From Candidatus Hodarchaeota archaeon (GTDB lineage Archaea > Asgardarchaeota > Lokiarchaeia > Sigyniarchaeales > SOKP01), in the NCBI GenBank assembly GCA_048886685.1, contig JBHLKM010000001.1, forward strand, positions 32,001-96,000: a DNA stretch of 64,000 bases, written 5' to 3'. The notes beneath the pieces were generated by a model. It saw nothing but the letters and a program-made list of their open reading frames with translations, made no database searches and was not told the origin of the DNA. Below are positions 131 through 22,368 of the stretch, piece by piece. The stretch's first letter is position 1. Each line of letters begins with the position of its first letter. Made by a program: the position numbers and the translations under genes.

Positions 131-2221
131 TTGAAAAGAATGCGTAATTTTTTTGAATTGTTAGAAAATAGAATTGGTTTTTCTAGAATAGGTCGGATGA
201 ATTTATCTAAAGAGAAGAAGCTATACATAAGAACACCAAATGTTACTATCCCAATTAAAAATGTTTTAATGAAACAATTTAGTTTTATACAGGAATTTGA
301 AGATCATGAACTATTTATTATTTCTAAAGAGATCTTCTTAAAAATCGGATTTCTAAGAGAAAAATTTAAAGATACTGGTTTCGTTTTTTCACACCCAGGA
401 ACTTTGGAAAAATTTGAAGATATTTTACAAAAGAATTTAGAAATTTTCATAGAAGATAATATCCTATCAATTGTTCCCTTCAATATTCCCACTACCACGA
501 TAGGTAAGGATTTTGCGAAGAAAGAGATTAATAATTACCTCAATAATGTCACCAGAATATTGGAAAGCCATCCCAACATTAATTTTGGACTGTCAATAAG
601 ACTATTTGATTATTCAGAATTAATAGATTTGTATTTCCCTATAATTGAAGGAAACGAAAATATAAAAATCCTAAATCTCGTTGGAATTTTTGATAATTTT
701 GGCAATTTTAGGAATATTATTAACACGATTATAAAAATAAAAAACAATTTAGATAATAATCTTGTTATAATGGCCTCTGGTAGGATAATTCCAAAATTTT
801 ACCCCATATTGGTTTATTTAGGAGTAGATCTAATTGATTCTACCTATTTGTTATATTTATCGGCGGAAAATTTCTATGATACGATAGAATATTTACTCCC
901 CATTTATAAAGTTAAGTATTTACCTTGTTCTTGTGTAGCTTGTAAAGGAAATTTAAAAAAATTATATGAGGTGAAACACTCACCAGAAAAAATCGACTTA
1001 ATTTGCTTACATAACCTAATAACTGCAAATAATTATATGATGAAAATAAAACAATATCTTCAACATGAGGATTACCGTGCTTTTGTTGAAAAATCATCTC
1101 TTGACGCTACAACAATAATTTCTACCTTAAAAATCTTAGATAAAGAATTTTTTAACCTTATTAGATATGAGACTCCAATTACTCAAAAAGACAAGAAAAT
1201 TAAATGTTTTGGTCCTATTTCGTATAATCGTCCTGATTTTAGAGAATTCAGAGAAAGAGTTATAAATAATTTTGAACCAGAAGCCTGGACTACGTTAATC
1301 GTTTTACTTCCGTGCTCTGCGAAAAAGCCTTATTCTAGCTCTAAATCACATAAACTGTTCTATAGAGCAATCAGAAAATTCTCCGAATTTCCAAATTTTC
1401 AAGAAATAATTATAACTTCACCTCTTGGGGCAATTCCTAGACAGTTAGAAAATGTTTATCCGGTAAACTCGTATGATATTTCTGTTACCGGTGAATGGGA
1501 CAGTGAAGAAATACAAATCACTTCAGATATGCTTACAAACCTCTTGAAAAAATATAATCAATCGATCCCCATTATTTGTCATCTTGAAAGAGAGTACTAT
1601 AAAATTGTCAAAAAGGTTGAATCTAATTTACCTTATACCTTCTTTTTTTCAGATATTAAAGGTAAACCTACTTCAAAAGAATCTCTTGAGTCGCTTGAAA
1701 AATTAATTCATAAGCATAAGAATGATTTTATACCAGAAAAAAGGTTATTTAAAGGTGATTATTTACTAAAAACTTGGATACGAAAATTTAACAAAATTTT
1801 GGATTATCAATTCGGCATCGGAACAGGAGAGAAAGTAGTTACTGTTGATTTACAATTACGAAAAATTAAATCCTATTTTCAAATTGAATTAATAGATTAT
1901 AAGACGAAAGTAAAATTAGGAACATTTGACGCTGTAACAGGACAAATAAGTTTAACTATTACAGGTATGAATAAATTAGCTCAAAAACCATTTCCTATAC
2001 AATCAAATATTATAATTTTTGATGGTCAAGGTATTCAAGGAAATACCTTATTTCGAATAGGTGTTTTAGATTATAGTTTAAATCTAATCCCTAATAATCA
2101 CGTAATTATCATTGATAAAGAAAAAAGTAATATAATTGCAGTTGGAAGACTAATTGTTGGAACAAACTATATTAAAAATTCTAAAACTGGAAGAATAGTT
2201 GAAATTTATGAAAAAAATTAG
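131..2221 (+). CDS. arcS: Archaeosine synthase subunit alpha (TGT-like N-terminal domain, central domain, C-terminal PUA)
   Basis: TGT-like Zn motif CSCVAC...HN, the PCSAKKPYSSSKSH motif and a PUA-like C-terminus; overlaps the radical SAM gene. Confidence 0.85.
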   Translation: MKRMRNFFELLENRIGFSRIGRMNLSKEKKLYIRTPNVTIPIKNVLMKQFSFIQEFEDHELFIISKEIFLKIGFLREKFKDTGFVFSHPGTLEKFEDILQKNLEIFIEDNILSIVPFNIPTTTIGKDFAKKEINNYLNNVTRILESHPNINFGLSIRLFDYSELIDLYFPIIEGNENIKILNLVGIFDNFGNFRNIINTIIKIKNNLDNNLVIMASGRIIPKFYPILVYLGVDLIDSTYLLYLSAENFYDTIEYLLPIYKVKYLPCSCVACKGNLKKLYEVKHSPEKIDLICLHNLITANNYMMKIKQYLQHEDYRAFVEKSSLDATTIISTLKILDKEFFNLIRYETPITQKDKKIKCFGPISYNRPDFREFRERVINNFEPEAWTTLIVLLPCSAKKPYSSSKSHKLFYRAIRKFSEFPNFQEIIITSPLGAIPRQLENVYPVNSYDISVTGEWDSEEIQITSDMLTNLLKKYNQSIPIICHLEREYYKIVKKVESNLPYTFFFSDIKGKPTSKESLESLEKLIHKHKNDFIPEKRLFKGDYLLKTWIRKFNKILDYQFGIGTGEKVVTVDLQLRKIKSYFQIELIDYKTKVKLGTFDAVTGQISLTITGMNKLAQKPFPIQSNIIIFDGQGIQGNTLFRIGVLDYSLNLIPNNHVIIIDKEKSNIIAVGRLIVGTNYIKNSKTGRIVEIYEKN

Positions 2222-3308
2222 CATTCCTATTGAACTTGATTCACACTTTATAGAGAGAATAAAATCTATAAGGCAAAATTCTTTAAATAAAAGAAAAAGT
2301 AGGAGTACATTACAATTAGAACGCCCTATTAGTTTTTGGATAAAAAAAGACAGGCTGTTTAATGAAATAGGAAAGGAATTTACCATTATTCTAGGGACAA
2401 AAGGATGTAGTTGGTCATTAGGTGAATCTGGTGGATGTAGTATGTGTGGATATATACAAGATACGATTATTGAAGATATTAATCAAAACCAAATTATAAC
2501 ACAATTTGATTATGCATTTAATAAGAAAATTGGAGAAATTATAAATGATAATAAGAATTATATCATAAAAATATTTAATTCTGGAAGTTTTTTTGATGAT
2601 AACGAGATATCTGATAAAGTTAGAAGTCATATATATGAAAAAGTTGCTGACATTGATAATTTAAAAGAGTTTGTTATAGAGAGTCGAATAGAATATATAA
2701 ATTCTGAAAAATTGAAAAATTTAAAAGAGAGTCTTAAAGAAAAACAGATTGAGATTGCTATAGGCCTCGAAACTGTAAACGATTATATCAGGAACCATTA
2801 TATCAATAAAGGGATGTTATTTAATGATTTTAAAAATATATTGAAAAAATGTAAAGAAAATAATATTGGTGTGAAGACTTATCTATTGTTGAAACCACCC
2901 TTTCTAAATGAGCAAGGAGCAATTGATGATTGTATTAACTCTATTACTAACTTAATAAAAATAAAAGTGAACACAATATCAATTAATCCAGTAAACATTC
3001 AAAAAGGAACTCTAGCAGAATATCTATATCTGCAAAATAGATACAGACCTCCATGGTATTATTCACTTTTCAAAGTCTTAAAAAAATCTATAGATCGAGA
3101 AGATTTAAATCGTATAAGAATATTATCGGATCCATCGGGAGCAGGAACTAAAAGAGGGATTCATAACTGTTTAAAAAGTGAATGTGAAACCTCTGCTAAA
3201 AAAACACTTAGAAATTTTGTACTTTCTCAAGATTTAACTACTTTAGAGCATTCGGAATTCGAATGTGAATGCAAAAAACAATACCAATTTGAGAAGCAAT
3301 TTCACTAA
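2199..3308 (+). CDS. Archaeosine biosynthesis radical SAM protein (RaSEA); start may be the ATG at 2208
   Basis: GCSW...GCSMCGY radical SAM-type motif, KIFNSGSF, GLET and YRPPW; adjacent to arcS. Confidence 0.85.
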   Translation: MKFMKKISIPIELDSHFIERIKSIRQNSLNKRKSRSTLQLERPISFWIKKDRLFNEIGKEFTIILGTKGCSWSLGESGGCSMCGYIQDTIIEDINQNQIITQFDYAFNKKIGEIINDNKNYIIKIFNSGSFFDDNEISDKVRSHIYEKVADIDNLKEFVIESRIEYINSEKLKNLKESLKEKQIEIAIGLETVNDYIRNHYINKGMLFNDFKNILKKCKENNIGVKTYLLLKPPFLNEQGAIDDCINSITNLIKIKVNTISINPVNIQKGTLAEYLYLQNRYRPPWYYSLFKVLKKSIDREDLNRIRILSDPSGAGTKRGIHNCLKSECETSAKKTLRNFVLSQDLTTLEHSEFECECKKQYQFEKQFH

Positions 3309-3546: not shown

Positions 3547-3798
3547 TTGAAAAAAAACTGGGTTAAATTAAATCTATTCTACATTGGAAAATCGAAAAAA
3601 CATCAAATTTTTCGAGCAAAACAATGGAATAGAAACTTAGAAAAAATACTTAAACAACCAGTTTATAATGAAAAATATGAAAAAATCGGTCATATTAAGG
3701 ATATATTTGGTCCAATTACCTTGCCTTTCATTTCAATCAAAACCTTACCTAACCAATTATTTGATCCCAATGTAAAGGTGTATACTAAACTAGCCTAG
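3547..3798 (+). CDS. gar1: Gar1/Naf1 family H/ACA RNP component
   Basis: VYNEKYEKIGHIKDIFGP motif; typical archaeal position upstream of tfb. Confidence 0.75.
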   Translation: MKKNWVKLNLFYIGKSKKHQIFRAKQWNRNLEKILKQPVYNEKYEKIGHIKDIFGPITLPFISIKTLPNQLFDPNVKVYTKLA

Positions 3799-6043: not shown

Positions 6044-6544
6044 ATTGTCATCCATTTAGTATTAACTTACTTTAATCAGATATTAGGTCCGAGTGTGTTA
6101 TTGTCATATCCAGATAAAATGCTAGAAGAAGCCCTAATAGAGAAATTAAAGAAGTTTTTTGATTTAGAAATAGATGAAACCTTTTTTGAAATCGTCCTCA
6201 TTACAAAGAAAAAGAAAATCATCAATTTCCATTTTGAAGTTCCTTCTGAGTGGGCGCGCGGGAAAAAGGAAGATGCTATGCTCTCCCTAATAGTAAAGAA
6301 AGAGTATGAAAGTTCACAATTTTACGCCTTTCTTGTTGATTCCTCTTATAAAATCCTTAAAACTGAAAGAGTATACAAAGCTTTTTATAAAGACGATGAA
6401 TTTTATGATAACGACATTGAAATTGATATGACGTATGAAATAATAAGAAAAATTCTTTTTAATTGTGTGTCAAGTCTAATTATGCGAATTGAAGATAAAA
6501 TTAAAGGAATAGATAAGAAAGAACCATTTCCTTTCTCTTCGTAA
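6044..6544 (+). CDS. Longin/uDENN-like hypothetical protein; real start probably ATT 6044 or ATC 6050, upstream of the track's 6095
   Basis: In-frame extension IVIHLVLTYFNQILGPSVLLSYP after a GGTGA SD-like motif; the F-x3-GP-x5-P pattern is typical of uDENN/longin N-termini. Confidence 0.55.
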   Translation: MVIHLVLTYFNQILGPSVLLSYPDKMLEEALIEKLKKFFDLEIDETFFEIVLITKKKKIINFHFEVPSEWARGKKEDAMLSLIVKKEYESSQFYAFLVDSSYKILKTERVYKAFYKDDEFYDNDIEIDMTYEIIRKILFNCVSSLIMRIEDKIKGIDKKEPFPFSS

Positions 6545-6545
6545 T

Positions 6546-6560
6546 AAAAATCTTTATAAC
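6546..6560 (+). promoter_or_regulatory. BRE/TATA-like promoter upstream of the candidate ncRNA
   Basis: A-run followed by TTTATAA (6553-6559), about 24 nt before GGGAGAAC at 6583. Confidence 0.45.
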
Positions 6561-6582
6561 TTTATTTTCCTATTATAATAAT

Positions 6583-6820
6583 GGGAGAACGATGATGGAA
6601 TAAACCGCGTGTTCGAGGACTCATACGACTAAAAAATGAATATGCAGTGCAAAGTGACGCGAAAATTCGGAGTTAATTAGTCAATTATAATCCTGTACAA
6701 GGCGGCTCTAAGTTTAGCAAAGGTGGATACCAAAGCGATGAACCTTGAGTCAGTACGCAGGAGACATGATTATGTTCCCAAAAGTGCATAGAGAATATTG
6801 CCTAGCACGAGAGAACATAT
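6583..6820 (+). ncRNA. Candidate structured non-coding RNA of unknown family
   Basis: GC-enriched island between convergent genes, no ORF, upstream TATA, and nested helices (GAAC/GTTC, GCGT/ACGC, GACTCA/TGAGTC, GACTAA/TTAGTC, GTGCATAG/CTAGCAC). Confidence 0.55.
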
Positions 6821-6868
6821 TTGATTTTAAAGGTATTTCCTTAAAATGAGAATATAGAGTTAGTGTTT

Positions 6869-7660
6869 CTAGGCTAAATCTATGCCATTTTTAACTATTT
6901 TCTCAGTTTTCTTCCCTTTTTTAATTAATGAGAGAAGATTATCATATGATCCTAGTAATACTTTAATATTTGAATTCTTTAAACCTTCATGAGGAGTGCC
7001 TTCATACACGATATTGCCTTCATGTAAAACCAATATTTTTTCTGCCCAATTTTCAACGAAAAATAGGTTGTGTGTAGTAAAGAAAATTGTAATTTGATTT
7101 TCTTTCCTTAATTTCTCAATAATTCTTAAGTGATTATATATTGATTTAAAATCAAGATTAGCAAAGGGTTCGTCTAAAATTAGCAAATTAGGTTTCATTA
7201 CCAAGACTCCTGCTAATGCTGCTCTCTTTTTTTGCCCCCATGAAAGGTTAAATGGTGAATAATTTCTATAATCTTCTAAATCAACTGCTTTCAATGCCCA
7301 GTCAACTCTTTGCTTTACTTGATCTTCTCCAAGTTTTAAGTTTCTTGCTCCAAAGCTGATATCTTCTTCTATTGTTGGCGCAAAAAGTTGATCATCGGGA
7401 TTTTGAAATAAAAAACCGACCGATTGTCTAATTTCCCATAAATCTCGTTTATTTCTTGTAACATTCTTCTCAAAAATCCTAATTGTACCAGATTTAGGTT
7501 TCAATAATCCTACCAATAATCTCAATAACGTTGTTTTACCTGAACCATTATTTCCTGTTAAAGCATAAATTGCGTTGTTTTCGATTTTAAAAGAAAGATT
7601 ATTAATTTCAAATCCATTATTATAACTGAAATTTAGATTTTCAACTTCTACGGCAAAAAT
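6869..7660 (-). CDS. cbiO: ECF transporter ATPase CbiO; start extended to ATT at 7660
   Basis: FQNPDDQLF, LSWGQKKR and LILDEP motifs; Walker A GNNGSGKTT lies in frame upstream of the track's start at 7525. Confidence 0.88.
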   Translation of the reverse strand: MFAVEVENLNFSYNNGFEINNLSFKIENNAIYALTGNNGSGKTTLLRLLVGLLKPKSGTIRIFEKNVTRNKRDLWEIRQSVGFLFQNPDDQLFAPTIEEDISFGARNLKLGEDQVKQRVDWALKAVDLEDYRNYSPFNLSWGQKKRAALAGVLVMKPNLLILDEPFANLDFKSIYNHLRIIEKLRKENQITIFFTTHNLFFVENWAEKILVLHEGNIVYEGTPHEGLKNSNIKVLLGSYDNLLSLIKKGKKTEKIVKNGIDLA

Positions 7661-20715: not shown

Positions 20716-22368
20716 TTATCTTAATTTAAATCCCTTGAATAATTTTAAAAGAAACATAATTTCTTCAGAACTTTCAATTAATCTTCTTAACGGAAAGGGG
20801 AAATTATTCAGCTCGACTTCATAACCCCTCGATACTTGGTCGATCATTATTTTTATTATTTCTTTGTATTTATTTACCGTTGGACCTTTATATTCGATCT
20901 CTGATATAACTTTCCAGCCTTTATCTAATTTCCCATTTAAAATGCATGAAATGGAAGCTAAGACATAACTGAGAACTATATGAGAATATCCTATTCTTTT
21001 TAAATTAGCTGCCCGATAATAATAACGATAAACATTATTAACCATTTCTCGTAAAAGAAAATCTTTAGCTGTATCAAGCTGTTCATAAAATTTTATACTC
21101 TCCAAGATCAGAGTTGCGGCTGTATAAAATTGTTTGTTTTTCAAACCCTCTTCAGCAATTTTATTCAATCCTCTAATTATTTGATTAAATATACCAAATC
21201 TATTATATTCTAAGTGTCCCTCTATAGCAATATCATATGCATTTAAATAACTCTCTGTAGATTCATTAATACTCCCTATCTTCCAGTAATTATCTCCAGC
21301 CTTCACGTAATGTTTATAAGCCATTTCCAAATTATTTAATTCCTTAAAAACATTAGCACCATCGAAAAAATTCGTCGCTGCTTGATCAAAATCTTTCAAT
21401 TTTTCTGAAAAGTTTCCAGCTAATAAAAAACATGAAGCACACTCAATTAGATTATTTTCTATCTCTTGATAACATAATCCTGCACCCCGATAATATCTAG
21501 CAATTTTATGATAGTTTTCTTTTGTCTTTTCGAGCTTTTCTGCCAAATCTATATAAGCTCCAGCTTCTCTTTTAGAGTAATTTATATATTGATCTTCTTC
21601 AGCTAAAATTTTATAAAGATTTTTCAATACTTGATATATTTGAGCTAATGTTAAGCTCTCATTCTTCTCTTCTAAGGTAGTCGCTAAATTTGAGAAAAAT
21701 TCTACTCCCGCCAAAATAGATTCTTGGGATTTGCCATAATCATCTAATTCCTCATAGCATGTACTAATTTGCTGATAAGAGAAAGATAGCATATCAAAAA
21801 AATGGTGAATCTTTGAGATATTGATTACTTTTTCGTAATATTTAATCGCATTTTTAAAATCAGAAGATTTCCAATACAATTCAGCTATATTTTGGTAATT
21901 TTGGGCAAGTTTCCTTGTCTCATCAAATTCTTTTAAAAGAGTACTTTCTTGTTTCAAGAAGTTAATACTATTTAAGATATTTCTTTTTTCTGAAAGGGTA
22001 TCATCAAATTTGTCTTGAAAAATCTCAGCAATCCTTAAATAGAGCTCAGCAACTTCATGCAATTTTGCCTGTAATTTATAGTCAATAATCTGTTTTTTAT
22101 ATAATTCTATGATTTTGTTATATAAATTAATCGATTCAGAAAAATCGAGGTCTTCAATTATTTCCGCTACAGAATATAAAAATTCTCCTGCTTCAAAAAA
22201 TTCCCCAGATTGGGCAATTTCATTAGAGAAATTGATTGAAACCAAAATAAGTTCTTGTATTGATTTGTTTCGTTCTATGGGATCTTCAATACTCTTAATT
22301 TTAGACTCAGATTCTCTTATTTTCTCCAAAAACTCAGTGTAATCAATGAATTCTTCATCTTCGATAAT
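20716..22368 (-). CDS. SNAP/TPR-like helical repeat protein; start possibly ATT 22368 (track start 22329)
   Basis: Repeated A-x2-Y/F-x2-A helical pairs; GAGGAG SD-like motif upstream of in-frame ATT/ATC. Confidence 0.65.
   Translation of the reverse strand: MIEDEEFIDYTEFLEKIRESESKIKSIEDPIERNKSIQELILVSINFSNEIAQSGEFFEAGEFLYSVAEIIEDLDFSESINLYNKIIELYKKQIIDYKLQAKLHEVAELYLRIAEIFQDKFDDTLSEKRNILNSINFLKQESTLLKEFDETRKLAQNYQNIAELYWKSSDFKNAIKYYEKVINISKIHHFFDMLSFSYQQISTCYEELDDYGKSQESILAGVEFFSNLATTLEEKNESLTLAQIYQVLKNLYKILAEEDQYINYSKREAGAYIDLAEKLEKTKENYHKIARYYRGAGLCYQEIENNLIECASCFLLAGNFSEKLKDFDQAATNFFDGANVFKELNNLEMAYKHYVKAGDNYWKIGSINESTESYLNAYDIAIEGHLEYNRFGIFNQIIRGLNKIAEEGLKNKQFYTAATLILESIKFYEQLDTAKDFLLREMVNNVYRYYYRAANLKRIGYSHIVLSYVLASISCILNGKLDKGWKVISEIEYKGPTVNKYKEIIKIMIDQVSRGYEVELNNFPFPLRRLIESSEEIMFLLKLFKGFKLR

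Follow-up and report, generated by a model that had tools for sequence, protein, structure and literature searches.

A three-hairpin RNA of Loki-type Asgard archaea, very probably an H/ACA guide orthologous to Pab40/HgcG

Archaeal box H/ACA guide RNAs are built from hairpins with a lower stem, an internal-loop pocket, an upper stem carrying a K-turn, and an ANA box (PMC7991803, PMC11077068). The nearest known counterparts of the RNA reported here are the three-hairpin guides Pab40, Pf7, Pho40 and Afu4 (Rfam HgcG, RF00064). In the Pab40/Pf7/Afu4 group, motif 1 modifies position 2588 of Pyrococcus abyssi and motif 3 modifies position 2016 in helix 69, while motif 2 of Afu4/Pf7 is expected to act at 2678, with 2647 as an earlier proposal (PMC2377435). 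The pseudouridine equivalent to P. abyssi 2678 is found at H. marismortui 2621, the counterpart of E. coli 2586 (PMC2584109), giving an offset of 92 by which P. abyssi 2588 becomes E. coli 2496, and 2647 becomes 2555. The Haloferax volcanii RNA sR-h45 (PMC7075261) is a homologue of Pf7 stems II and III (PMC2584109). Its SL1 guides position 2605, which would correspond to H. marismortui 2621 and E. coli 2586, and its SL2 modifies both helix 69 uridines via unpaired UNUN (PMC7075261). P. abyssi 2016 and 2588 are listed as conserved in eukaryotes (PMC2377435), where U19/snR191 guide 1915/1917 (PMC2584109). A search of the literature found no paper on H/ACA RNAs of Asgard archaea, and no pseudouridine mapping for any Asgard archaeon.

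The RNA gene described here lies in a 64,000-nucleotide stretch of DNA (the window) from a 4.4 Mb genome with 31% GC, assigned to the Promethearchaeia (Loki), the Cbf5 of which shares 78-94% identity with Promethearchaeia (Loki) MAG proteins. The locus is the gap between two convergent genes, encoding a longin-like protein (+ strand, ending at 6544) and a cbiO-type ABC ATPase (- strand, 6869-7525), and is preceded by gar1, tfb, a small ORF without a Pfam match, a roadblock-type gene and then the longin-like gene. The initial annotation of this DNA had noted a GC-enriched, ORF-free island here, in agreement with the 42% GC of positions 6581-6780, compared with 30-31% in the flanking genes and the genome, and with the absence of any stop-free run longer than 38 codons in every frame of the RNA stretch. 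It had also proposed a promoter of the RNA's own, and the sequence contains a TATA box (TTTATAA, 6553-6559, + strand) with an A-rich, BRE-like run before it. The box starts 29 bases 5' of position 6582, and a TATA-like hexamer begins at -29 in 40 of 53 homologues; a sigma-70 promoter scan is unsuited to archaea. The annotation had placed the end of a ~200-240 nt RNA at 6820. However, the conserved block extends from 6582 to about 6886 and includes a third hairpin, so that the whole gene, with ends placed by conservation and stems, would occupy 6582-6886 of the + strand (about 305 bases, AT-rich at 39% GC). Its last ~18 bases (6869-6886) are antisense to the 3' end of the cbiO-type gene on the - strand. 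This overlap covers the stop codon and final codons of the gene and, in the RNA, the last ANA box with the 3' closing stem.

The surroundings contain several further features. The reading frame of the longin/uDENN-like gene (6044-6544), which has no Pfam match, extends back to an in-frame ATT at 6044 (IVIHLVLTYFNQILGP...), and this ATT, 17 codons 5' of the first GTG, is likely to serve as a non-canonical start. A SECIS reading of the locus was discarded, as the upstream frame lacks an internal UGA after the likely ATT start, and the motifs in question belong to the H/ACA hairpins. Just upstream of gar1-tfb, the interval 131-3308 contains adjacent archaeosine genes, one for a TGT/DUF5591/PUA protein (ArcS-like) and the other for a radical SAM protein, whose position suggests that it is RaSEA-like. 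Outside the window, at 21205-21297 and 221073-221165 of contig C1 of genome G000, ARAGORN calls a tRNA-Sec (TCA) and a second tRNA-like gene of 93 bases with a 4-base anticodon loop, TCCA.

By BLAST, the RNA is single-copy in its genome and is matched in 55 of the 58 other family genomes, and a hairpin-1 model built in this analysis finds it in 122 of 149 class genomes and 65 of 150 phylum genomes. In four metatranscriptome studies, long contigs (143-214 bases aligned) from relatives and close strains are confined to 6583-6857, one of them beginning at 6583, and the flanking genes receive short, unlike pieces only. Being contigs rather than stranded reads, and possibly including DNA, these record the presence of the sequence in RNA libraries and not its strand or ends. 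Several of them end at 6811-6813, which was dismissed as the 3' end since others reach 6857. The position of the RNA between convergent genes, its overlap with the cbiO stop codon and the conservation of most neighbours within the family would suit a cis-acting terminator or a regulatory 3' UTR of the longin-like or cbiO gene. This reading is exceedingly improbable, as the RNA has its own TATA box and pockets matching rRNA, and is covered by RNA contigs that do not extend over the flanking genes. Among the fetched loci it is also retained in those that lack the longin or cbiO gene, including one (L038) in which none of the five neighbours was found. The locus is a real, conserved and previously unannotated RNA gene.

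The fold of 6575-6825 predicted from the single sequence is no better than that of shuffled sequences (z -0.59), and the structure was therefore taken from homologues; the region of the third hairpin (6786-6885) has a fold z of -3.6, and RNAalifold recovered part of the structure only. A structure derived by hand on 46 aligned homologues, tested against 500 shuffles and slid controls (which leave the relatedness among homologues in place), consists of three hairpins; 90.5% of its cells are paired and 28 of its pairs show both-side changes, exceeding 500/500 shuffles and all slid controls. This homologue collection and covariation test had been proposed in the initial annotation, and its proposal of a stand-alone structured Asgard RNA is borne out, as are its promoter and the C/D-like K-turn motifs. 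Each hairpin comprises a lower stem, an internal-loop pocket, an upper stem, a K-turn or K-loop, and an ANA box just 3' of it (at 6663, 6764 and 6876). The bases that are both unpaired and invariant are those of the loop strands, namely CGAGG and GCA in hairpin 1, GGCUC in hairpin 2, and GAGAG and GUUAGUG in hairpin 3. The K-turn or K-loop is formed by GA/AUGA in hairpins 1 and 3, UGA is invariant or nearly so in all three, and its partner in hairpin 2 is non-standard (UA, AA or GA).

All parts of the RNA lie on the + strand. Hairpin 1 (6606-6661) has a lower stem (6606-6610/6657-6661) and an upper stem whose helices both covary, a 5' pocket strand UCGAGG (6613-6618), a 3' pocket strand GCAA (6649-6652) and a K-loop with GA at 6627-6628 and AUGA at 6636-6639. 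Its ANA box (AAA, 6663-6665) is 14 bases from the pocket, and reads ACA in 29, AAA in 10 and AUA in 7 of the 46 homologues. Hairpin 2 (6691-6762) has a lower stem UCCUG/CAGGA in which 5/5 pairs covary, a non-standard K-turn (UA 6715-6716, AUGA 6738-6741) with an apical stem at 6722-6731, and an ACA box (6764-6766) of which both A's (A183 and A185 of the alignment) are invariant. Hairpin 3 (6800-6874), supported by conservation and covariation, has a lower stem GCCUAG/CUAGGC, a 5' pocket strand GAGAG (6809-6813), a 3' pocket strand GUUAGU (6859-6864), a K-turn (UGA 6822-6824, AUGA 6846-6849) with an apical stem above it, and an AAA box (6876-6878), which is ACA in 28 and AAA in 18 of the 46 homologues.

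Additional stems surround the hairpins. A terminal stem (6582-6586 with 6776-6780), paired in 95.6% of cells and changed on one side only, holds hairpins 1 and 2 within it, a stem below the ACA box (6678-6683 with UGAUUA at 6767-6772; 96% paired, 2 both-side pairs) closes hairpin 2, and another (6786-6792 with 6879-6885; 89.6% paired, 3 both-side pairs), absent in some lineages, closes hairpin 3. Every motif quoted in the initial annotation is present in the sequence where it had been placed, and some of its pairings recur here, namely the terminal UGGGA/UCCCA, CCU/AGG in the basal part of hairpin 2, and the apical pairings GC/GC and GGU/ACC. By contrast, GCGT (6607) pairs with ACGC at 6657 rather than 6755, and the nested set with GACTCA/TGAGTC and GACTAA/TTAGTC yields 3 both-side pairs, a count reached by 447/500 shuffles. 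The alternative fold of TATGTTC with GAACATA around a GTGCATAG/CTAGCAC hairpin is 51% paired in the homologues, leaving the suggested switch between two folds unsupported.

In its three H/ACA hairpins, their order (2496, 2586, helix 69) and its length of about 300 bases, the RNA resembles Pab40, Pf7, Pho40 and Afu4, with which it also has in common that motif 1 carries a K-loop and the other two motifs K-turns. The HgcG consensus contains the same pocket words (CGAGGAC...GUGCGA, ACCCUG and GUGUUA). By the offset of 92, all three hairpins follow the Pab40-type order, as does the alternative site 2555, the older proposal for motif 2 of Afu4, which surfaced as an alternative in the present target scan. 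The comparison outside the Asgard archaea was made with the Rfam HgcG consensus and the Sulfolobus RNAs described in PMC11077068. The RNA is thus, with high confidence, a three-hairpin H/ACA guide targeting 23S rRNA and the Asgard orthologue of Pab40/Pf7/Afu4, rather than an RNA of no recognisable family, as had been proposed. This orthology is argued from architecture, pocket words and predicted targets, and not from membership of Rfam by score: the window copy has no match to HgcG even at E 10, and Rfam scans of the window at the gathering score and at E 10 returned chance matches only (Corona_pk3 and U6). Full-length copies from other Asgard families match RF00064 with E values of 5e-12 to 8e-7 (best 51.9 bits), but no Asgard copy reaches the gathering threshold of 77 bits, and the AT-rich Loki copies have no match. 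There is likewise no ARAGORN or Rfam match to RNase P, SRP or tRNA, in line with the initial annotation.

Several features set the Loki RNA apart from its relatives. It has a basal C/D-like K-turn, a terminal stem around its first two hairpins and closing stems at the ACA boxes; by contrast, the HgcG consensus has no basal K-turn, and each ACA leads straight into the next hairpin. The Loki motif-3 guide is GUUAGU, with a spacing of 14-15 bases at U1917, whereas Pab40 modifies the equivalent of 1915 (PMC2584109), and motif 2 has collapsed in the window's lineage. Relative to sR-h45, hairpin 2 is comparable with SL1 and hairpin 3 can adopt the register of SL2, while sR-h45 has two hairpins, lacks the 2496 hairpin and contains a 56-base linker instead of the basal K-turn. 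The copies of family f25 (L096, L101) have a two-hairpin form without the 2496 hairpin, as in sR-h45, and those of f18 (L179, L185) carry a long additional structured insert between hairpins 2 and 3. With eukaryotic H/ACA snoRNAs the RNA would share the same chemistry at the same conserved rRNA positions. Those guides differ in being H-box/ACA RNAs of two hairpins that lack K-turns, and each of them covers part of the sites; the present RNA is of archaeal build.

The organism's own rRNA is unassembled, searches of its genome and of the five closest genomes having found none, and targets were therefore taken from the rRNAs of family members. Each pocket was scored on every uridine (about 1060) of the relatives' 16S and 23S rRNA, with E. 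coli 23S numbering assigned by alignment after correction of a one-base offset of the E. coli record. For hairpin 1, 23S U2496 (GGCUUGC-UU-CCUCGAUG) ranks first in 46/46 homologues, and the distance between pocket and ANA box, the anchor used for placing the pocket, is 14 bases in all 46. The equivalent of this position in yeast is 25S U2865, the site guided by snR46. For hairpin 3, the helix 69 loop (U1917/U1915) ranks first in 44/46 homologues. Two registers are available: UAGU, 14-15 bases from the ANA box in 43/46, corresponds to 1917 and leaves an additional A unpaired (UAA instead of UN), which was permitted in the scan, and GUUA, 16-17 bases from the box, pairs with U1911-C1914 and corresponds to 1915, with unpaired UNUN. 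U1917 is the predicted target, with U1915 possibly modified by the second register. The window copy forms 4+6 pairs at U2496 and 4+5 pairs at U1917, both ranking first on the relatives' rRNA.

The hairpin 2 pocket is not a clear best match to U2586 (CUGGGUU-UA-GACCGU), which ranks first in 6 homologues, takes rank 2-8 in a further 33 and is not found in 7. In relatives, the ACA box lies 14-15 bases from ACCC. In the window's lineage (7/46), the 3' strand has lost the CCC of ACCC and the pocket has collapsed, and in the window copy the 5' pocket strand is changed as well, so that hairpin 2 has probably lost its activity here. The pocket of most Loki relatives fits U2586. Two other candidate sites were rejected. 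U2555, the other frequent top site, was set aside because this position is A in 9/9 genus rRNAs read, and the best-scoring site for hairpin 2 of the window copy (position 941 of the G099 23S) is not credible, as the segment differs in genus relatives. A further idea, an inverted, snR30-like pairing of the 3' side of hairpin 2 (UCAGUACCCA) with 16S helix 13 (UGGGUACUGA), amounts to a 10-base complement and was not adopted, since the position to be modified has no U, the segment is variable (GCCAG, GGCAG, GACAG), and both U2586 and the HgcG consensus account for the same ACCC.

The rRNA genes of the family have peculiarities of their own. G040 (L088, with L014) has C at 23S 2586 together with a weakened hairpin 2 pocket (UCCCUAU), and G037 (L121) has two 23S pieces that differ, with U at this position in one and C in the other; a co-loss of guide and target at 2586 is possible, the cases being too few to say more. 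In the helix 69 loop, the 23S genes of G040 (L088) and G049 (L080) are interrupted immediately 3' of U1917, where hairpin 3 is predicted to act, by inserts of about 55 and 30 bases, respectively; should they be introns, splicing would have to precede modification. Several genus 23S genes (L088 of G040, and also L110-L114) have a ~40-base insert with a hairpin before helix 92, following E. coli position ~2530, and the A-loop position 2555 is A, not U, in the 9 genus rRNAs noted above. Many 16S genes of the family are in split pieces.

The basal K-turn lies below hairpin 1, with AUGA at 6592-6595 opposite CGGA at 6668-6671. Its C-like strand (6588-6599) comprises a C-stem AAC, a bulge GAU, GA and an NC stem UGGA, with invariant AUGA, and its D-like strand (UUCGGAGUU) occupies 6666-6674. 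Both flanking stems covary, with both-side changes at C6590-G6672, G6597-C6668 and G6598-U6667, and GA followed by RU is found 2-5 bases 3' of the hairpin 1 ANA box in 45/46 homologues. The K-turn is kept in 45-46 of the 46 Loki-family copies and is recognizable by eye in the Asgard families f8, f17, f21, f26, f27, f31, f7 and f2, while it is missing in f10, f13 and some f12 copies; L090, L092, L095 and L098 are examples of Asgard copies without it. Stems closing the ACA boxes are visible in most other inspected Asgard copies. The D-like strand is mostly non-canonical (CNGA, e.g. CGGA, UUGA or CAGA), and the K-turn encloses hairpin 1 only. The f31 copy (L100) lacks hairpin 2 and has a canonical C/D K-turn (GAUGACG / CUGA) under hairpin 1.

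The initial annotation had suggested that these motifs perhaps belong to an oversized box C/D RNA, with a C box at 6592, a D box at 6765 and, speculatively, an antisense element at 6602-6614; such an RNA would guide 2'-O-methylation or act as a 16S chaperone. The RNA does contain several RUGA and GA motifs, the box C-like ATGATGG belongs to a genuine C/D-like K-turn beneath hairpin 1, and AACCGC could pair with 16S GCGGUU at about position 911-914. However, the partner of ATGATGG is CGGA (6668-6671), and the supposed box D, CATGA (6765), consists of the invariant ACA box of hairpin 2, 3' of a covarying stem, and one strand of the closing stem. The antisense AACCGC is kept in 8/46 homologues and forms one strand of a covarying stem within the RNA. 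The segment 5' of the D-like strand, consisting of the ANA box and a covarying stem strand, cannot act as a guide, and the invariant single-stranded bases are those of the H/ACA pockets. The oversized C/D reading is thus largely refuted and highly improbable, and the structure is that of the three-hairpin H/ACA guide.

Eukaryotic U85-type scaRNAs combine C/D and H/ACA elements in a hybrid layout. A similar hybrid particle, in which the basal K-turn of a pseudouridylation guide also recruits Nop5-fibrillarin for protection of the 5' end or for a second activity, would account for the retention of this K-turn across the Loki family and in several other Asgard families, its canonical form in L100 and its absence from the HgcG consensus. 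This is nevertheless very unlikely, as no conserved methylation guide adjoins the D-like strand (the adjoining segments being variable stem strands or the ANA box), the strand is usually non-canonical, the K-turn is missing in some Asgard families, and L7Ae binding alone suffices as an explanation. Also very unlikely is the related proposal that many Asgard copies are natural C/D-H/ACA composites, with hairpin 1 held within a K-turn recruiting Nop5-fibrillarin/L7Ae and with stems closing the ACA boxes; if true, it would point to an archaeal forerunner of eukaryotic hybrid scaRNAs, or to a distinct maturation of Asgard H/ACA RNAs. In the preferred reading of the RNA as an H/ACA guide, the lack of a methylation guide makes a structural role the simplest reading of the basal K-turn, which, together with the stems below the ACA boxes, most likely provides an extra (fourth) L7Ae site and end protection. 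These elements represent a small architectural novelty of the Asgard copies.

The genome encodes the H/ACA proteins Cbf5 (with GTLDP), Nop10, an L7Ae-family protein and Gar1. The gar1 gene (3547-3798, + strand) is located 2.8 kb upstream of the RNA, its Pfam Gar1 match (E 1.2e-6, 28.6 bits) falling just below the cut-off of 29.3. The proposed mechanism, for which transcript ends, protein binding, modifications and the role of the extra stems are inferred, is as follows. The RNA's own TATA promoter would drive transcription of the ~305-base guide. L7Ae would bind the upper K-turn or K-loop of each hairpin, and Cbf5-Nop10-Gar1 the lower stem and ANA box. The two pocket strands would then pair with the 23S rRNA flanking a uridine that is left unpaired, for conversion into pseudouridine by Cbf5. 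Hairpin 1 would direct modification of U2496 in the peptidyl-transferase centre, and hairpin 3 that of U1917 in helix 69, perhaps also of U1915 by the second register as in sR-h45. Hairpin 2 would act on U2586 in most Loki relatives, and is probably inactive in the present lineage.

Overall, the RNA appears to be of a known kind, with minor Asgard-specific additions that hold little surprise for specialists. Its recognition fills an annotation gap, as Rfam misses what would be the main pseudouridylation guide of Loki-type Asgard archaea.
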